Below are positions 24,001-33,000 of a stretch of 64,000 bases of DNA, piece by piece (position 1 is the stretch's first letter; every line of letters begins with the position of its first letter). Source of the DNA: Planctomycetota bacterium (GTDB taxonomy: Bacteria; Planctomycetota; SZUA-567; H5-PLA8); NCBI GenBank assembly GCA_038227875.1, contig JBBRPR010000013.1:96001-160000 (forward strand), read 5' to 3'. The position numbers were made by a program.

Positions 24001-27000
24001 TAGCACACCAGAACTTCCGTTTAATACGGAGAGGGCACAATTTACAAAGCATTATCAGCAATGATATTGCGCGCCAAAAGGCGCGCATTTTTGTTTCCCA
24101 AGACTCCCTATTTGCACATGTTCCTTCCGCTCTGATAAAAGTCCGTCGTACATTTTTCAAGAATCTTCCGCCCAACTTTCAATCGTCTCGGAATAACCTT
24201 TCAGAGCAGCAAAGAATGTTGGCTGCCTGGCGTCCGGTGAGACTACAATGGCCGTCCGAGTTTCAAACCTGGCTGGTGCGACCGCGATGGAAACGATGGA
24301 CGACATTTCGTTGCTGAAAGCCATCGCCGAACGGCGGGATCACGCGGCCTTCGCGGAACTCTGCGAGCGCTGCCACAAACGCGCCTTCAATCTCGCCTTT
24401 CGAATTCTGCGCAATCCGGCGGCAGCCGAAGATGCGGTTCAAGAAGCCATGCTCGCGGTCTGGCTCTCGGCAGGTTCGTTTCAGCCGGACCGGGGAAACC
24501 CACAATCGTGGATACTGAGTATCGTGATGAATAAATGCGTCAACTTAGGGGCCGCTCAGCGACAACGCGCCAAGCGCGAGGAGCGTCTGGCCATGGAACG
24601 AAGCAGTCTGGAGTCCGAATCCACATCCCGGATTGAAGACCGGGAGTTGATCGTCACGCTGCGCAGTCACCTCGACCGGTTGCCGGATCTGGACGGCCGG
24701 ATCCTGGCGTGCTGCTACGGCGCCAACATGTCGCATCAGAAGGCCGCGGAATTTCTGGGCATCCCCCGGCGCACGGTCTCCGAGAAGATCCAGCGCGCGC
24801 TCGATTCCCTCCGCGGCAGCCTGTTGAAGGCCGGTGTCGCCGCGGTGGTGCCGCTGCTCAGCGCCGAGAATCTCTTTGAAGCCATGACCACCGGCCACGA
24901 ATGCCCGCCCGGCATGGGTGAACGGATTGTCCGCCACGTCACGTCGGCGGGACGCTCCGCGCGCGCCTTGCCGCGCCGTCCGGTCCCCGCGAAGGGCGGC
25001 ATCGGCATGTTCCTGGCTGTCGGCGCGGTGGCCGCCGTCGCCGTAGGCGTCGTTGCCAGCCGCGGCTATTTCACGCCAACCCCGAATTCCGCCGCGCCGA
25101 CTCTCGCTCCCGCCCCGGACGCGCTGCATCTCCATTGGTCGTTCGAGAAGGAAGCACCTGCCGATCTGCGCGTGTTGCAGCAAAGTTGGACGTGGAAGTA
25201 CTCCGAGGAAAAGAAGACTGGCTACCTCGCCACGCCGTCCGGCGAATCGAACGCCGTCTTCGTGACTCTGCCCTTCACGCTTCCGGCGCAGCCGGTTCTG
25301 ATCCACTCGGAAGCTTTTCTGCCGCTGGAAGGCGTGTTTGCGCTGAGCGCCATGCCGATGCGAGGCAACCAGGTTCTGCCCACGGTACGCTGGCGCACGT
25401 TCTATAATTTGCGCGGAACCACCGTGTCCAGTCTGCAAGTCACGCATCACAGCGACATCTACATTGTCGATCACCACATCGTCCAGTTGCTGGACGGTCA
25501 TGTGATGGAAATCCGGATTGTCCCAGAAGCCGCAACCTCGATCGCACTGGGCATCCGCAATTGGGGCCTGCTGAGCATGGATGTCAAAACCATCAGCCCG
25601 GCGGACCTGCCCGCTCCGCTCAAGGATGTTCCGGCGTTGATTCTAACGATGAAGGAAGGGCCCGAAAAAGAAAACGTGCCCGGCGATCCGCCGCCCAGGG
25701 AGCCCGTCCGTAACTGATTAACCGCCCGCCGCCGCGGGAAACAAAACAACAGGGAATAGAACAGGAAAGACACCGTGCGTGTGCTTGATGGAGCCTCATT
25801 GTCCCGCGTTTTCCAAACTAAGGAGCCGCCATGTTCCAGTCGCAGAGTGAAGACGTGCGTACGTTACCGAAGTCCTCGAAGATTTCGCAGGCCTTGCGCG
25901 CCATTCAGCCCAGCGCGATCGGAACCGCCGAAACCGAAAACGTGGCCGAGCCCGAGGTCATCATCCGTCCGATTCTCGGCGAGCACGAACTCGATCGCGT
26001 CTATCAACTGACCTACGACGCCTACGTCGAACGCGGGTACTGCGAAGAACACCCGTCGCGCCGGCTGATTCATTATCCGCATCTCGACCGTATCCCCGAG
26101 ACCACGGTCCTGGTCGCGGTCGTGGACGGCAAGATCGTCGGCACCAATTCCTGGACCTTGGACGGGCCCAATGGTCTCCATGTGGACAAGGATTTCCATG
26201 CGGAGACCCGCGTCGTGCGCAGCGAAGGCCGCCGCCTGGCCGCGTCCTGGCGTATCGCCACTTCAAGTTGCTTCCGGGCCGAACGCAAAGTGGTCATGGC
26301 GCTGATTCAGCAGACCTGCCAGGGAATCGTCGCCGCCAACGTGGACACCTCGATCTTCACCTTCAACCCACGGCACGAACGCATTTATCAGCGCCTGCTG
26401 AACATGAAGACCATCGCGACCAGCGCGGGCACCAACGGTCTGCGCAATGCGCCCGCCGTGTTGATGCGCCTGGACCTGAAGGACTTGCCGGAACGCTGGC
26501 TGCAGCCCATGTCCGTCGGTTGATGAGAATTTAAAACATTTCTTTGGTCAAACCGGGCGCAGCTGGTTTTGCATAGTGGAAGACAGTCGTAACTCACGTT
26601 TTAGATCGGGAGTCGCCAGGAAACGCACAATGTAGTTCAACGGAGCCGTTCATCATGCCCAGCAGCGCGGTTTTCGAATACGACAACGCCTTCGCCCGCA
26701 ACCTCGGGTTGGTCAACGTTGATGAACAGTCCCGCCTGCGCCAGACCCGCGTCGGCTTGCCGGGACTAGGCGGCGTCGGCGGTGCGCATCTGCAGGCGCT
26801 GGCCCGCATGGGCATCGGGGCGTTTCATCTCGCCGATCCGGATACGTTCGACGTCGTCAACATGAATCGCCAGCTCGGCGCGTCGATGAACACCGTCGGA
26901 CGCTCCAAGGCGGAAGTCGTCGGCGAATCCTTGAAGACCATCAATCCCGACGCGCAGGTCGAACTCTTCCGCGACGGCATCAACGCACAGAACATCGATG

Positions 27001-30000: not shown

Positions 30001-33000
30001 TTCAATTCTCCGCTTACGGCGCGTCGAGCCGGGGATGGTGTTCCGCACATGACCCCCACAATCTCGGTGCGCTCCGTCTCCAAGCACTACGCAGGCGGCG
30101 AATCCTGGGCCGTCCGCGGCATCTCGCTCTCCGTGTTTCCCGCTGAAGTCACCGTGCTGATGGGACCCTCGGGCAGCGGCAAGACAACGCTGCTCTCCAT
30201 GATCGGCGGCGTCCTTACGCCCACCGAAGGCTCGCTCAGTGTCTGCGGCGTGGAACTCAGCGGCTGCGACGAATCGCAATTGCAGAGCTTCCGGCGCGGC
30301 CAGATCGGTTTCATTTTCCAGAGCTTCAATCTGCTCTCGTCGCTGACCGCGCTGGAAAACATTGAACTGGCGCTTTCCCTGCGCGGCAAAGGACCCTCGA
30401 CTGCCGCGGAACTGCTCGACCATGTCGGCCTGGCCGCCAAAGCGCAGGCGTATCCGATGGAACTGTCCGGCGGACAGCGCCAGCGCATCGGCGTCGCACG
30501 CGCGCTGGCCGGCGATCCTCCGGTGCTCCTGGCCGACGAACCGACCGCCGCGCTCGATGCCTTTCAAGGCCGCCGCGTCATGGATCTGCTCCGCACCCGC
30601 GCCCGTGAATCCGGCACGACGGTGCTGGTCGTCACGCACGATCCGCGTGTCCGTGAATTCGCCGACCGCGTGATCGAGATGGAAGATGGAAAACTCAAGC
30701 GCATCGTCCGCCGCGTGCGGCCGGAGCAGGCTGAGGATGGGCAGTGGTTGGTTTCCCGAACCGGCACGATTGTAGCCGAGACTGCGAGCACCTGATGGCC
30801 AAAGAGGCCAAAGAACCCTCCGAGTCCACCCCTGCCGCCGCCCCCCAGGCTGCCGCCCATGATCTCATGGACGCGGAAGCGGCTCGTCAGCTCTTGAAAA
30901 TGCCGGCGGCCAAGTTCGAATTGCTCATCTCCACCGGACAGGTACGCGTCTTCCGTTCCGACGGACAGCCGTGCTTCCGCCGCGAAGACATTGCCGCGCT
31001 GGCCTTGAAGCGACAGGCCGCGCCGGCCAAGAGCGCCGCACCGCGCAAAGTTGCTCCGCCTGCGGCTGCTCCCGCCGCACCGGGCGCATCTGCCGCGAAA
31101 TCCTCTCCGCGCAGTGAAGCCGTGAAACCGCCGGCGTCCAAGGCCACTCCTTCCATTCCCAAGCCTTCTGAACCCGACGATATGGAAGAGGAGGAATTTG
31201 AAGAACCGCCGCCGCCCGCGCCGCGCCAGAAATCACGCGCCGTCTCGCGGTTCCTGTTGCCGGCCGCGATCGTGATCGCGATCATCGCATTCGCCTGGAC
31301 CTTCAACACCGCCAGCAAACACAGCGAGCTGCCGATGGCAGTACCGCCGCCCGCGCCGGGAGCTTTCGCCAATTCGAAGGCGGCACCGGGGCTGATCGAA
31401 TCCGTCTCTGGCGAACGCCCGCTCTCCTTTGAGGTAGGTGGAAAAATTCACGCCGTCCTGGTCGAAGAAGGCCAGTCCGTGAATGTCGGCGATACGATCG
31501 CTGAGCTGGAAAACGCGGACCTGAACGCGAAGCTGAAATCCAGCCAGGCCGATTTAAGCGCCGCCGAGGCGAAGCTGGGCATGCTCAATGGCAATCTCGA
31601 GAGCGATCTCAAGAAATCCGAAAGCGAAGTCGCACGGTTGAAGGCCGAAATACTCCTGCTCGAACCCCGCAAGGAAGACATTGAGCGCGCGCGCGCCGAA
31701 ACGGCCGCAACCGAGGCCGACTGCACGCGCCTGACTGAGGACGCCAAGCGCAACGCCGACATCCATGCTCAGAATACGGGAGCGGTGCCGCAGCAACTCG
31801 TCGATCAGACGAAACGGCTCGCGGAAGCAGCCGCCGCAAAATGCAACGCCTCGAAAGCCCAGCTTCACGCTCTGGAAGCCGGTTCGCGTCCCGAGGAAAA
31901 GGATCGTCTCAGTGCCATGCTCGCGAGCGCCGAAGCCGAAGTCTCCCGCCAGAAAACCACCAGCGCGTATCAAATCCAGTCCGTTCAGGCGCAGGTTGAT
32001 CAGTCCAAAGCGCAAGTCGAGCTGGTCAAGGCCGACCTGCAGAAGACGCGCATCGTATCGGCCAGTTCCGGCACGGTGGTGCGGAAGTACATGCATCCCG
32101 GCGAAGTGATTGATGCGCTCCACCCGCAACCGGTGGTCACCGTTGCCGACCTGACCCAACTGCGCGTCCGCGCCGATGTCGACGAAGCGGACTTTCCGGG
32201 CATCTCCGTCGGTCAGCGCGTGAAGATCACCGCGGACGCCTGGGAGGAAGGAAAATTCCTGACTGGAGTTGTCGAACGCATCAGCACCACCACCGGACAG
32301 AAGCGCTTCTCCACCGGCGAAGCCCGCGAGAAGATGGACATCAAGATCGTCGAAACGATCGTGAAGTTCGACGCACCGCCGCCACCCAAGCTCGTCAAGC
32401 TCAACCTGCGCGTCACCGCCTACTTCGAAATCTCGAAGTAACGCGAGTTGTGAGTACAGCTTCGGAAAACTCAAAAAAAGCGGCGGATTTTCTCTGCCGT
32501 TTTTTTTGTATCACCGCCTCCGCACCTCAAATTACAATTAAAGGGGCACCTTCCGACTGCCGATAATGTTCACGACGGTCAAACGTTGAACTTACGGCAC
32601 GTTGCGAAAGGACGAGCGCCCCATGAACCGACTCTGTTCGTTTTTGAAGCCCTGGACCATTAACGCCGCCCGGGTTGGCCTGGTGGGACTGCTGCTGGCT
32701 GGCGTCACCGGCTGCGACAAGGACGATCAGGACGGGCCTGTTCCCGCCTCCTCGACCAAGGTCATCCCGACGCGACCCGAAGCACTAAGCCTTGCGCGCC
32801 AGGACATCAGGGCCGGCAACGGTCCCAGCGCTCAACAGCGCGTCGAAGCATACCTGAAAGAAAATCGGACCACGCCGTTCCGCGCGGAAGCCGAATACCT
32901 GCTCGGCCAGGCCTTCACCACGCAGGGCGATTTCGACACCGGCAAGAAGCATCTGGAAATCGCCATCGACGAAGCGCAGGATCGCGATCTCAAGGCCTTC

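Follow-up and report, generated by a model that had tools for sequence, protein, structure and literature searches.

The window (the whole 64-kb stretch of DNA analysed here) carries on its plus strand a cassette spanning 24248-32441, which encodes an ECF sigma factor, a synthase of N-acyl amino acids (NAS, FeeM family), a ThiF cyclase, a nitroreductase-superfamily oxidase (NTR) and a DevBCA/MacB-HlyD-type exporter, and on its minus strand a second cassette. The genome-wide survey's note had placed the end of the former at 30795, but a HlyD/DevB-like gene prolongs it to 32441. The features of the two cassettes are as follows.

24068..24093, plus strand: intrinsic-terminator-like hairpin and T run after the upstream PKD-domain gene (8-pair stem, 7 G-C pairs, then TTTTTGTTTC)
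24149..24176, plus strand: candidate for a self-activated promoter region (P1), with the block TCTTCCGCCCAAC behind an AT-rich element (family-A upstream motif)
24248..25717, plus strand: one-piece, membrane-anchored ECF sigma factor, 489 aa (Pfam Sigma70_r2 3.7e-15, r4 9.6e-9)
25790..25803, plus strand: conserved element GGAGCCTCATTGTC in the ECF-NAS gap, 27 nt upstream of the NAS start codon; candidate internal promoter or RNA element
25820-25825, plus strand: NAS ribosome-binding site
25831..26523, plus strand: NAS (FeeM family), 230 aa (PF21926 6.8e-34, 117 bits; cut-off 27)
26525..26554, plus strand: candidate internal promoter P2 ahead of ThiF, made up of an AT-rich element and TTGGTCAAACC (pattern TTGGTNAAANC)
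26655..27608, plus strand: ThiF-family ATP-dependent cyclase/adenylyltransferase, 317 aa, of the TyzB / OxzB N-domain type (PF00899 1.4e-47)
27589..27843, plus strand: uncertain 84-aa ORF that shares bases with the end of ThiF and the start of NTR (gene-call score 17.9)
27840..28910, plus strand: nitroreductase-superfamily flavin oxidase (Acg/TyzC-like desaturase), 356 aa (PF00881 9.2e-10, partial)
28907..30052, plus strand: MacB/DevC-type ABC exporter permease, 381 aa (MacB_PCD 9.5e-15, FtsX 2e-13; DevC 117 bits, below the cut-off of 290)
30049..30795, plus strand: ABC exporter ATPase of the DevA/MacB/LolD type, 248 aa (ABC_tran 1.1e-31; DevA 232 bits, below the cut-off of 296)
30795..32441, plus strand: HlyD/DevB-type periplasmic adaptor, 548 aa (HlyD_3 2.4e-13; DevB 95 bits, below the cut-off of 129)
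13327..17805, minus strand: second cassette, whole
16741-17805, minus strand: aminotransferase of the second cassette
16695-16707, minus strand: block TCTTCCGACCAAC of the second cassette
15189-16655, minus strand: family-A ECF of the second cassette, 488 aa
14332-15162, minus strand: ThiF of the second cassette
13327-14145, minus strand: NAS of the second cassette

Judging from its sequence, the hairpin at 24068..24093 marks the beginning of a separate transcription unit; a simple scan found no plus-strand terminator within the cassette, and neighbouring genes overlap or abut from ThiF through HlyD. The 84-aa ORF at 27589..27843 has no family match in Pfam or NCBIfam, and the 84-aa ORFs at this position in the C13 and C89 cassettes show no mutual similarity. 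The enzyme assignments are supported by structural and family relatives: the NAS matches the FeeM structure 2g0b (E 1.4e-3), and the ThiF protein, whose nearest solved relative is the cyclodehydratase TcdA (4d7a, 1e-18), matches NCBIfam PRK08223 with 356 bits against a cut-off of 266. The oxidase matches the Acg nitroreductase 2ymv (4.7e-8), the C-terminal part of the NCBIfam Rv1355c family (170 bits) and the Acg family (136 bits, below the cut-off of 199). The family of 356-383-aa proteins that had been described as unknown belongs to the nitroreductase superfamily and is Acg/TyzC-like by family and structure matches. Moreover, the 989-aa NCBIfam model PRK14852 matches NAS, ThiF and NTR in that order on a single polypeptide, and ThiF-NTR fusions are represented by PRK14851 and the Rv1355c family. 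In the published work, the same three enzymes are reported to yield tyrazolones or N-acyl dehydrotyrosines (PMC10404671; bioRxiv 10.1101/2020.06.11.147165; PMC12479983), and we infer that the window cassette encodes this known N-acyl-dehydro-amino-acid/oxazolone chemistry (TyzABC, OxzAB, stieleriacines).

The 489-aa ECF protein comprises sigma2 (residues ~20-115), sigma4 (~131-194) and a conserved two-helix linker (200-239), then one Gly/Ala-rich TM helix (~250-272), behind which a Pro/Ala spacer leads to the ectodomain, a ConA-like beta-sandwich (294-475). The linker faintly resembles an NCBIfam anti-sigma model (E 2e-3), the single hit of this kind; Pfam recognises no anti-sigma domain in the protein, which speaks against the reading as a sigma switch. 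The survey's note had reported one TM segment in 16 of 17 cassette ECFs; the strongest 19-residue hydrophobic window begins at residues 230-269 in all 19 full-length family-A ECFs (defined below) and scores above 1.6 in 18 of them (1.5 in C86_4). Among 77 paralogs this helix is 49% Gly/Ala/Ser, and the net charge of +2.7 before it and +0.05 after it follows the positive-inside pattern. The AF2 model of the full-length protein has a pLDDT of 81.7 and that of the ectodomain alone a pLDDT of 90.8 and a pTM of 0.86; in structure comparison the latter matches lectin/CBM folds with Z 9-11.3, in agreement with the lectin-like outer domain described earlier. The model thus points to a ConA-like fold of the carbohydrate-binding type, a lectin fold being in itself no proof of sugar binding. 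Paralogs are on average 18% identical in the ectodomain and 40% identical in the sigma domains. Of 175 sigma columns, residue 179 in the sigma4.2 helix (TVS-x-R-L/I) varies most, with 16 residue types in the 77 paralogs, which suggests insulation between them.

A profile search of the whole genome with PF21926 gave 19 matches above cut-off, on the same contigs as the 19 FeeM genes named previously, two of them within the window. Using independent gene calls (6703 genes), and counting as family A those ECFs that match the window ECF with phmmer E<1e-25, we found a same-strand family-A ECF within three genes of 16 of the 19 NAS genes, upstream in 15 and downstream in one (C51). These counts are identical to the earlier ones, as are the three NAS places without ECF (C83, C95 and C105) and the partner counts, with ThiF adjoining eight NAS genes and an FAD_binding_4 oxidase five (C2, C49, C64, C102, C83). 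Exporter sets of the MacB/ABC/HlyD kind occur at C13, C9, C64 and C89. The C83 NAS lies ~1.1 kb from a contig end, and at C105 a 62-aa ECF-like tblastn fragment is the only ECF remnant; that three of 19 synthases lack such an ECF counts against the reading of the ECF as a dedicated switch. The size given for family A (32 members) did not hold: we found 19 full-length genes (464-523 aa) plus four fragments or short forms. Cassettes also contain several ECF fragments and two short genes that are sigma-only. The worry that sheer sigma factor abundance explains the adjacency (136 Sigma70_r2 matches by our search, 134 previously) is dispelled by 20000 random 19-gene sets, in which such adjacencies numbered 0.23 on average and never more than 4, versus the 16 observed. 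The ECF-NAS pairing is therefore real, far beyond chance and, as the following comparisons support, conserved, and a dedicated regulatory link is its best reading. We found no published description of this link in the literature.

In the sister genus (G004), 16 of 24 NAS genes have a same-strand family-A-type ECF within ~2.5 kb, and other relatives show the same arrangement at 3/4 (G002), 1/1 (G001), 1/1 (G006), 1/2 (G010) and 1/3 plus two convergent (G012) places. NAS and the ectodomain co-occur in the same nine of 20 genomes of the order, and the pairing recurs in two of three distant families that carry the ectodomain: in one (f27), a gene for a 475-aa ECF bearing this ectodomain comes 6 nt after an NAS gene, and in another (f16) the ectodomain belongs to a FecR-domain protein encoded 25 nt upstream of NAS. 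The large NAS expansions of other families (G021, G028, G049, G060) are almost entirely devoid of the ECF, which likewise counts against the dedicated-switch reading. In the 40 G004 loci inspected, roughly three quarters of the 61 family-A ECFs precede enzymes other than NAS, among them methyltransferases, glycosyltransferases, fatty-acid desaturases, acyltransferases and a ketoacyl synthase.

Upstream of family-A ECF genes, at a distance of 60-160 nt, lies an AT-rich motif that reaches at least 13 bits at 11/19 family-A genes; the corresponding counts are 21/6512 among other genes, 2/109 among the remaining sigma genes and 0/19 among NAS genes. Its matrix was trained on the same family-A genes that were then counted (leave-one-out scores 7-14 bits). 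A TCTTCCG-type pattern, derived from the three sites themselves, occurs at three intergenic sites genome-wide, all upstream of family-A ECFs. In this genome the block following the AT-rich motif varies with the sigma4 residue of the sigma clade, E going with TCTTCCG (3/3), G with TCTCAGCC (2/2) and F/Y with GTTGG or CTTGG (5/5). This rule, found post hoc among related paralogs, was not replicated in G004 (E 0/3, G 0/3, F/Y 2/15) and may reflect shared descent alone. In G004 the ECF genes instead have a palindrome ahead of them at 43 of 61 places; because it has the appearance of a dimeric regulator's site, other inputs would control ECF expression there. Within the window cassette, the element GGAGCCTCATTGTC conforms to GGnGnnnYRTTGYC, which has 17 intergenic matches genome-wide, seven of them directly after family-A ECF genes; GC hairpins of varying sequence precede elements of this type, and the region has no Rfam match. 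Genome-wide, 12 intergenic sites fit the pattern TTGGTNAAANC, among them P2 and sites upstream of C15_39 and C6_29, both ECF genes; since P2 resembles the upstream region of C15_39, the cassette may not be one operon under one sigma factor.

On balance we favour, with some confidence, the reading that two of 16 paralogous modules lie in the window, a one-piece membrane-anchored ECF serving in each as the dedicated switch of the adjacent small biosynthetic cassette; these ECFs are probably sensor-diversified, self-activating switches of lipoamino-acid cassettes. NAS would acylate an amino acid with a fatty acyl group, the nitroreductase-superfamily oxidase would desaturate the product and ThiF would cyclise or activate it, giving an N-acyl-2,3-dehydro-amino acid or oxazolone of the stieleriacine/tyrazolone type, and the DevBCA/MacB-HlyD-type pump would export the lipid. 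The sigma domains would be held at the cytoplasmic face of the membrane by the single Gly/Ala-rich helix, while the fast-diverging ConA-like domain would bind, in the periplasm, a ligand that differs between paralogs, probably a glycan or some other cue from the envelope or from outside. Binding would release or activate the sigma part, most likely by regulated proteolysis as in IutY and SCO4117, and the sigma part would then transcribe its own operon, including NAS and the tailoring genes, from the motif upstream of the ECF gene.

The earlier proposal went further, to private quorum-sensing-like circuits in which the exported product is bound by the ectodomain of its own cassette and the operon auto-induces, NAS and ECF taking the place of LuxI and LuxR. 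The pairing on which it was built stands, and synthase, exporter and outward-facing sensor are encoded together and probably co-transcribed; the likely self-activation would yield positive feedback, the hypervariable sigma4 residue suggests insulated channels, and the authors of the stieleriacine study speculated about a quorum-sensing role, naming no regulator in that passage (PMC7293339). However, sensing of the own product is difficult to reconcile with the synthases themselves: nearest-paralog NAS pairs are 54-76% identical, far above the 18% of the ectodomains, and the closest pairs (C102_8/C64_9, 74%, each followed by an FAD oxidase, and C67_24/C27_6, 76%) adjoin ectodomains that cannot be aligned (E 1.4) or share 23% identity. 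Similar outputs are attached to very different sensors. The ectodomain fold is, moreover, that of carbohydrate-binding modules, and most of the inspected G004 ECFs stand before enzymes that by themselves produce no signal scaffold. The previously reported negative co-phylogeny test was reproduced (Mantel r -0.16), although the absence of ECF-NAS co-divergence has little power as an argument because even the sigma part and ectodomain of the same protein are uncorrelated (r -0.08). Taken together, we regard such circuits as improbable.

Somewhat better placed, though still unlikely in our estimate, is a role in envelope remodelling, in which the products are membrane or surface aminolipids and the lectin-like domain reports on the condition of the envelope or exopolysaccharide of the cell itself, so that the ECFs adjust lipid composition. 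An exporter of the DevBCA/LolCDE/MacB kind, which moves lipids to outer layers, the lipid and glycolipid chemistry of the enzymes behind the G004 ECFs, and the link of NAS genes to exopolysaccharide/PEP-CTERM systems, as cited in PMC7293339, are all consistent with this role. Stieleriacines and tyrazolones, however, were found as extractable small molecules that act on other bacteria, according to the same source, and at least 16 separate sensors are many for envelope homeostasis; our analysis does not separate an envelope cue from an external one. Least probable of all, in our view, is adjacency without regulation, with ECF and NAS moving or duplicating as a mobile or recombining block and the ECF controlling other genes or none. 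The mismatch of NAS and ECF trees does imply that parts were re-assorted, and the short sigma-only genes and ECF fragments imply turnover, but re-assortment with adjacency kept argues for selection on the pairing. Against mere adjacency also stand the single phyletic pattern of NAS and ectodomain across 20 genomes, the recurrence of the pairing in distant families in a different, FecR-type anti-sigma architecture, the short same-strand ECF-NAS gaps (6 nt in G060, 22 nt, up to 396 nt) and the confinement of the intergenic TCTTCCG-type sites to family-A ECF upstream regions.

The dedicated-switch reading that we prefer has counterparts in known systems. The window exporter is like the DevBCA glycolipid exporter, yet scores under the NCBI cut-offs. 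The sigma part of the ECF resembles the systems SigW/RsiW, CnrH/CnrY and SigK/RskA, and the union of sigma factor and membrane anchor in one chain is like that of the sigma/anti-sigma hybrids SCO4117 and IutY. In line with this architecture, passages of PMC8999054 describe proteolysis-activated fusions of sigma factors with a TM anti-sigma-like part, one of which has a Pro-rich spacer and a carbohydrate-binding domain.

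[quoted passage not shown] At 16 of the 19 genes a close paralog of the ECF sigma factor of the window lies no more than three genes away on the same strand (15 upstream, one downstream), as had been claimed, and 20000 random sets of 19 genes gave on average 0.23 and at most 4 such adjacencies. A profile of this ECF family (family A, the membrane-anchored paralogs of the window ECF; alignment A1 of 40 rows) picks out 19 members of full length, along with two fragments and two short genes for a sigma part alone within cassettes, and about 100 further sigma factors of the genome, which has 136 Sigma70_r2 matches, match it only up to the membrane helix and differ in their outer domains. 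The two short genes, C67_25 (191 aa) and C88_16 (180 aa) in the NAS cassettes at loci L005 and L013, are close to the family-A sigma part, have no linker, membrane helix or ectodomain, and would represent a constitutively free form of the same sigma factor. Two family-A ECFs stand without a NAS gene, one on contig C6 adjoining an aminotransferase and one on C86 adjoining a ThiF protein and a short-chain dehydrogenase. The gene orders of the cassettes and the sizes of the ThiF and FAD oxidase families came out as the survey had listed them, and its family H of unknown identity is likewise present and can now be named a nitroreductase-superfamily enzyme (NTR). Directly between ECF and NAS there is often a small two-helix membrane protein of 71-118 aa, YgaP-like (PF11127/DUF2892), which occurs in the cassettes of C15, C17, C67 and C88 and at about ten loci of the sister-genus genome G004, frequently overlaps the next gene and may partner the membrane sigma factor.

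All genes of the cassette under study, 24248-32441, are co-directional on the + strand of the window. The start proposed by the survey is retained, and its end at 30795 has to be moved to 32441, since the HlyD/DevB-type adaptor adds about 1.6 kb. The following features were placed individually, together with a second cassette that is divergently placed:

24248-25717, + strand: ECF sigma factor of 489 aa (own gene calls and family scans)
26655-27608, + strand: ThiF-family enzyme (PF00899, 1.4e-47; NCBIfam PRK08223 above cut-off)
between the ThiF and NTR genes, + strand: uncertain ORF of 84 aa (gene call)
27840-28910, + strand: nitroreductase-superfamily protein (gene calls and family scans)
28907-30052, + strand: MacB/DevC-type permease (gene calls and family scans)
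30049-30795, + strand: ABC ATPase (gene calls and family scans)
30795-32441, + strand: HlyD/DevB-type adaptor (gene calls and family scans)
13327-17805, - strand: second cassette, with aminotransferase, ECF of 488 aa, ThiF and NAS genes in that order

Between the cassette and an upstream gene for a PKD-domain protein lies a terminator-like hairpin and T run (24068-24093). The 84-aa ORFs of this cassette and of its counterpart on C89 have no homology to each other, and an Rfam scan of window positions 12000-34000 at E<=1 gave no matches. At 17887-20004 on the - strand the window encodes a 705-aa protein with N-terminal ECF sigma2 and sigma4 regions and HEAT repeats over the remainder; it belongs to the roughly 100 sigma factors in the genome whose C-terminal parts are long and varied.

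The NAS, ThiF and NTR genes follow one another at 25831-28910. The NAS protein matches PF21926 with 117.4 bits against a cut-off of 27 and covers profile positions 2-158 of 158, and among solved structures NAS is closest to FeeM (2g0b), ThiF to the cyclodehydratase TcdA (4d7a) and NTR to the nitroreductase Acg (2ymv); the NTR protein reaches 136 bits with the Acg family, below the cut-off of 199. The NCBIfam family PRK14852, of 989 aa, matches the window NAS, ThiF and NTR in the same order, and two families of ThiF-NTR fusions, including PRK14851, match as well, and the existence of such fusion families indicates a shared pathway for the three genes. A triad of this kind has been described in Mycobacterium tuberculosis, where C12-tyrazolone is made by TyzA (a NAS), TyzC (a nitroreductase-superfamily flavin oxidase) and TyzB (a ThiF homolog) (PMC10404671), and in marine proteobacteria, where tyrazolones result from OxzA and the ThiF-nitroreductase fusion OxzB (bioRxiv 10.1101/2020.06.11.147165). 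For the stieleriacines of Stieleria the same NAS/ThiF/nitroreductase triad has been proposed (PMC12479983), and in these reports its output is an N-acyl tyrosine that is converted to a dehydrotyrosine or tyrazolone (PMC10404671; bioRxiv 10.1101/2020.06.11.147165; PMC12479983). The window pathway would accordingly belong to a known chemistry, that of the TyzABC/OxzAB type, with the likeness to TyzB, TyzC and OxzB resting on family profiles and closest solved relatives; its product, with the amino acid, the acyl chain and the export, is putative. A permease with a periplasmic core domain, an ATPase and a membrane-fusion protein are all encoded for the exporter, and no gene for an outer-membrane channel was seen in the cassette. 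Because the best NCBIfam matches, those to the DevBCA proteins, all score below the NCBI cut-offs (DevC 117 against 290, DevA 232 against 296, DevB 95 against 129), we class these proteins as MacB/HlyD-type parts.

The window ECF matches Sigma70_r2 and Sigma70_r4 of Pfam as well as TIGR02937 (sigma70-ECF; 84.5 bits, cut-off 42.9), and consists of sigma2 and sigma4 without sigma3 or sigma1, as is characteristic of group 4. An AF2 model built on A1 (pLDDT 81.7) places sigma2 at residues 19-115 and sigma4 at 131-194, followed by two helices of good confidence (200-214 and 223-239), a stretch of low confidence (240-290) with the sole strongly hydrophobic segment (maximum 252-270), and a beta-sandwich at 294-475. 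In structure searches the sigma part resembles SigW/RsiW, CnrH/CnrY, SigK/RskA and SigE. A single hydrophobic segment at residues 230-269 is present in all 19 paralogs of the genome. Among 77 paralogs from two genomes the helix consists to 49% of Gly, Ala and Ser and the net charge is +2.7 in the 15 residues before it and +0.05 after it, and mean pairwise identity among these 77 is 0.40 in sigma2, 0.41 in sigma4, 0.35 in the linker, 0.23 in helix plus spacer and 0.18 in the ectodomain. The positive-inside charge pattern and the identity profile point to an N-in, C-out protein whose cytoplasmic linker is conserved and whose outer domain diverges fast. No Pfam match to an anti-sigma domain of the ZAS, RskA or FecR N-terminal type was obtained for the window ECF; the conserved linker (35% identity) is predicted to form two helices (pLDDT ~90), and linker plus helix give a faint match to the NCBIfam "antisigma" model (E 2e-3; 18 bits, cut-off 100).

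Modeled alone on 72 paralogs (pLDDT 90.8, pTM 0.86), the ectodomain, which matched no Pfam family, is a two-sheet jelly-roll with the fold of ConA-like lectins and glucanases, to which 71 chains align at Z>=8 in an all-against-representatives structural search. Among the top matches are the three below, together with the Aap lectin domain, CBM66, legume-lectin-like domains and GH16 and PL7 enzymes.

Structural matches of the ectodomain model
Galactocerebrosidase lectin domain, 3zr5: Z 11.3, 159 residues aligned, rmsd 4.8
Vibrio cholerae sialidase lectin domain, 2w68: Z 10.9, 154 residues aligned, rmsd 3.6
YesU, 1oq1: Z 10.2, 155 residues aligned, rmsd 3.2

A protein Atlas search with the ectodomain returned CBM-type families and unnamed clusters at scores of 0.82-0.85, under 0.9, which serve as leads only. 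Some family-A ECFs of the sister genus, of 701-727 aa (loci L021, L022, L024 and L026), carry two tandem lectin-like ectodomains; in one example the profile matches twice within one open frame, at G004:C114:19291-19929 and 19927-20529. From likeness to other membrane-bound sigma systems we infer a mechanism in which binding of a ligand at the lectin-like domain would lead to release of the sigma part, which would then activate its own operon.

The pairing of NAS and family-A ECF extends to other genomes. In the sister-genus genome 16 of 24 FeeM matches are accompanied, at a distance of up to about 2.5 kb, by a same-strand family-A ECF, and same-strand pairs were found for 3 of 4 FeeM matches in G002, 1 of 1 in G001 and in G006, 1 of 2 in G010 and 1 of 3 in G012, which has two more in convergent orientation. 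Within the order, FeeM and the ectodomain profile occur in the same 9 of 20 genomes and are both absent from the other 11, these genomes being kin rather than 20 independent trials. In a sample of the phylum the ectodomain is present in 6 of 151 genomes, in three of them as single copies in distant families. In one carrier (G060) a NAS gene is followed after 6 nt by a 475-aa protein composed of sigma2, sigma4 and the ectodomain, in another (G049) a FecR-domain protein bearing the ectodomain ends 25 nt upstream of a NAS gene, and in a third (G047) no NAS gene is found on the same contig. No observation argues more strongly for the ectodomain as the sensor end of a NAS-directed sigma/anti-sigma pathway than its occurrence on a separate FecR-type anti-sigma factor beside a NAS gene. 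A search of genome contigs with the ECF alignment keyed on the generic sigma2 motif and returned 80 unrelated ECF loci, mostly from Actinomycetota. Taken together, this comparative evidence supports well a regulatory link between family-A ECFs and NAS genes.

The ECF family of the sister genus is far larger than its NAS family, with about 67 ectodomain matches against 24 FeeM matches. Forty of its loci, selected by ECF matches, contain 61 family-A ECFs and 16 NAS genes, and the other same-strand followers at these 40 loci comprise methyltransferases (5), 2-oxoacid_dh-type acyltransferases (3), EryCIII-like and GT4 glycosyltransferases, fatty-acid desaturases (2), a ketoacyl synthase, a radical-SAM enzyme, a hexapeptide acyltransferase with an AMP ligase, a Rieske oxygenase, ThiF, MacB and small YgaP-like membrane proteins (10). 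Conversely, NAS expansions in other families come without the ectodomain or with a single copy of it (47 matches in G021, 13 in G028, 26 in G049 and 34 in G060). The varied partners in both genera and the NAS expansions without the ectodomain suggest that the ECF family serves one lineage as a general switch of small cassettes for lipids and lipoamino acids, most often partnered by NAS. At loci L140-L144 of G021 and L145 of G028, in another family of the class, NAS domains lie at either end of open frames of 700-800 aa with no adjacent sigma gene; these may be fusion proteins, or their starts may have been called too long in DNA of 70% GC.

Upstream of 16-18 of the 19 family-A ECF genes of the genome under study, 60-160 nt before the start codon, there is an AT-rich motif with the consensus TGAAATTATTTTCAGAATTC. 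At 13 bits or more it precedes 11 of 19 family-A genes, 21 of 6512 other genes, 2 of 109 other sigma genes and none of the 19 NAS genes, counted with a matrix trained on these same family-A genes (leave-one-out scores 7-14 bits). The candidate promoter region P1, upstream of the window ECF gene on the + strand, carries the block TCTTCCGCCCAAC but no assignable -35 and -10 elements, and in the second cassette the block TCTTCCGnCCAAC, the same as in the cassette under study, lies 40 nt upstream of the ECF gene. Residue 179 in the sigma4.2 helix is the most variable of 175 sigma-region columns (16 residue types, 3.68 bits) and is flanked by nearly invariant Val-Ser and Arg/Lys-Leu/Ile, a pattern that would fit diversified -35 recognition. 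In this genome the block following the AT-rich motif tracks the sigma clade and residue 179, with TCTTCCG accompanying Glu in 3 of 3 cases, TCTCAGCC Gly in 2 of 2 and GTTGG/CTTGG Phe or Tyr in 5 of 5, and between genes the extended TCTTCCG pattern occurs just three times, always at the ECF genes from which it was derived. Since the sister genus gave no replication (0 of 3, 0 of 3 and 2 of 15), this rule is suggestive only.

Upstream of 43 of the 61 family-A ECF genes of the sister genus (loci L020-L059), at a distance of 70-200 nt, there is instead a 29-bp palindrome, TGTAACTCnTT-N7-AAnGAGTTACA, which also precedes four NAS genes and 12 other genes. A motif GTAAC-N17-GTTAC considered there as an ECF promoter was rejected because it scored equally on both strands, as a palindrome does. 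The element looks like the site of a dimeric regulator; about 36 similar palindromes exist in the genome under study, none before a family-A ECF gene and one before a NAS gene. Both genera have, between the ECF and the next gene, a GC hairpin of varying sequence and after it GGnGnnnYRTTGYC, at 17-29 nt from the start codon, in 7-8 cassettes of the genome under study (window 25790-25803; also C2, C15, C27, C49, C64, C67 and C89) and in five of the sister genus (L020, L021, L032, L048 and L053). GGnGnnnYRTTGYC has 17 intergenic matches in the former genome, seven of them directly after family-A ECF genes, and the hairpin with this element had no match in Rfam. A promoter-like site before the ThiF gene (26525-26554, + strand) consists of an AT-rich element and TTGGTCAAACC and is closely similar to the sequence upstream of the ECF gene C15_39 (C15:55662), whose cassette lacks genes for tailoring and export and holds, at 56% identity, the nearest paralog of the window NAS. 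This resemblance hints at cross-wiring, in which the sigma factor of one cassette may drive the tailoring and export genes of another in trans.

The boldest reading in the survey's note was a quorum-sensing-like system, in which every tethered sigma factor senses the product of its own cassette. If true, the genome would contain parallel autoinducer circuits built from NAS and tethered ECF, that is, quorum sensing without a receptor of the LuxR or histidine-kinase type, and the sister genus with its roughly 67 copies would run a larger array of channels. The negative co-divergence test that the survey had itself reported was obtained again, distances among sigma factors and among NAS proteins giving r -0.16, a value reached by 87% of shuffles, and in Mantel tests the correlation was likewise absent between ectodomain and NAS (r -0.04). 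However, the sigma part and the ectodomain of the same protein are also uncorrelated (r -0.08), so the Mantel test is blind at this divergence. Individual pairs of cassettes are more telling.

Percent identity between paired cassettes
C102_8 and C64_9, both followed by an FAD oxidase: NAS 74%, sigma 40%, ectodomain without significant similarity (E 1.4)
C67_24 and C27_6: NAS 76%, sigma 34%, ectodomain 23%
C89 and C49: NAS 68%, sigma 65%, ectodomain 43%

Among these pairs only C89 and C49 look as if they had been duplicated as a unit. Near-identical synthases under unrelated sensors fit different inputs with similar outputs better than private channels that sense their own products, and so do the fold, which is of the lectin type, and the many partners other than NAS in the sister genus. 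On these grounds quorum sensing is unlikely as a general rule across the members of the family, though some members may sense their product. That each membrane sigma factor forms an insulated one-protein channel, reading one extracellular molecule through its private lectin-fold domain, in the boldest form the cassette's own product, and writing one exported lipoamino acid, strikes us as highly improbable. The pairing of near-identical synthases with unlike sensors suggests instead a system in which many inputs converge on few outputs.

Thirty planctomycetal ECF groups were reportedly defined by Wiegand et al. in 2020, and Jogler et al. are said to have defined ECF groups in 2012; the window sigma family may already fall within a group named in these studies. 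A literature search on NAS in planctomycetes, NAS with sigma factors, TyzB, oxazolone synthetase and planctomycete ECF extensions found no paper on an ECF-NAS link. A sigma factor is not mentioned in the text of PMC12479983, in that of PMC7293339 and its supplement or in the main text of the OxzAB preprint. The cluster table of S. maiorica lists a DegU-type regulator and no sigma factor (PMC7293339 supplement), and Kallscheuer et al., who speculated on quorum sensing by stieleriacines, stated that the regulator of the possible signalling system was not known (PMC7293339). We rate the present finding as a combination of known kinds, namely a cluster-situated ECF, a sigma/anti-sigma hybrid and a TyzABC-type pathway.

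N-acyl amino acids and their dehydro and oxazolone derivatives, such as stieleriacines and tyrazolones, form a recently opened class of bacterial lipids, and we know of no trigger established for their production. A concrete regulator family, open to testing, can now be named for N-acyl amino acid cassettes, and over-expression of the free sigma part could turn on silent cassettes in slow-growing planctomycetes and expose their products. In addition, the family provides a natural set of tens of related and possibly insulated sigma factors, each with a different outer sensor and a hypervariable promoter-helix residue, which is of interest for the evolution of sigma specificity and for the building of genetic circuits.

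FeeM resembles synthases of the LuxI type in fold, and as in LuxI/LuxR systems the cassettes would combine an acyl-amino-acid-type product of a small acyltransferase with a regulator encoded alongside and possible positive feedback. However, LuxR is a cytoplasmic ligand-binding activator that senses the product of the synthase, whereas here the part of regulator falls to a membrane sigma factor whose outer domain has a lectin fold, and for which the similar NAS proteins beside unlike ectodomains, the fold and the partners in the sister genus speak against the product as ligand.

Among ECFs, C-terminal extensions are the second commonest mode of control and auto-regulation is usual (PMC7826278). 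Like the window-type ECFs, AntA of the antimycin cluster (ECF282) is cluster-encoded and turns on part of its cluster (PMC8999054), but it is soluble, controlled by ClpXP and without a sensor domain, whereas the window-type ECFs bear their own outward sensor. IutY of Pseudomonas putida (ECF243) shares the one-piece arrangement of sigma and membrane-bound sensor, from which Prc and RseP release the sigma factor on a signal (PMC8999054), and the relative in G049 has the same ectodomain on a FecR-domain protein; IutY, however, controls iron uptake on a signal received through a siderophore receptor of the outer membrane, whereas here no receptor gene was seen and the domain on the outside is lectin-like. 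SCO4117 of Streptomyces coelicolor (ECF52) likewise consists of sigma, membrane span, outer spacer and outer domain, its spacer being proline-rich and its outer domain carbohydrate-binding, and it is proposed to be activated by proteolysis and tied to antibiotic production (PMC8999054). In contrast to the window ECF, which has no recognisable anti-sigma domain, ECF52 carries one of the zinc-finger (ZAS) type; it belongs to a different phylum and is not known as a large paralog family tied to one enzyme class.

On the side of export, the three parts of the cassette are common to the DevBCA exporter of heterocyst glycolipids and to MacAB, with the window set below the DevBCA cut-offs. The enzyme triad is the same as in TyzABC, OxzAB and the NasY/ThiF/nitroreductase genes of Stieleria, and fused forms of its three domains exist elsewhere. 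In comparison with these systems, the window genes are separate, not fused, and joined to a DevBCA/MacB-type exporter, and the window triad is further distinguished by standing behind a membrane-anchored ECF sigma factor.
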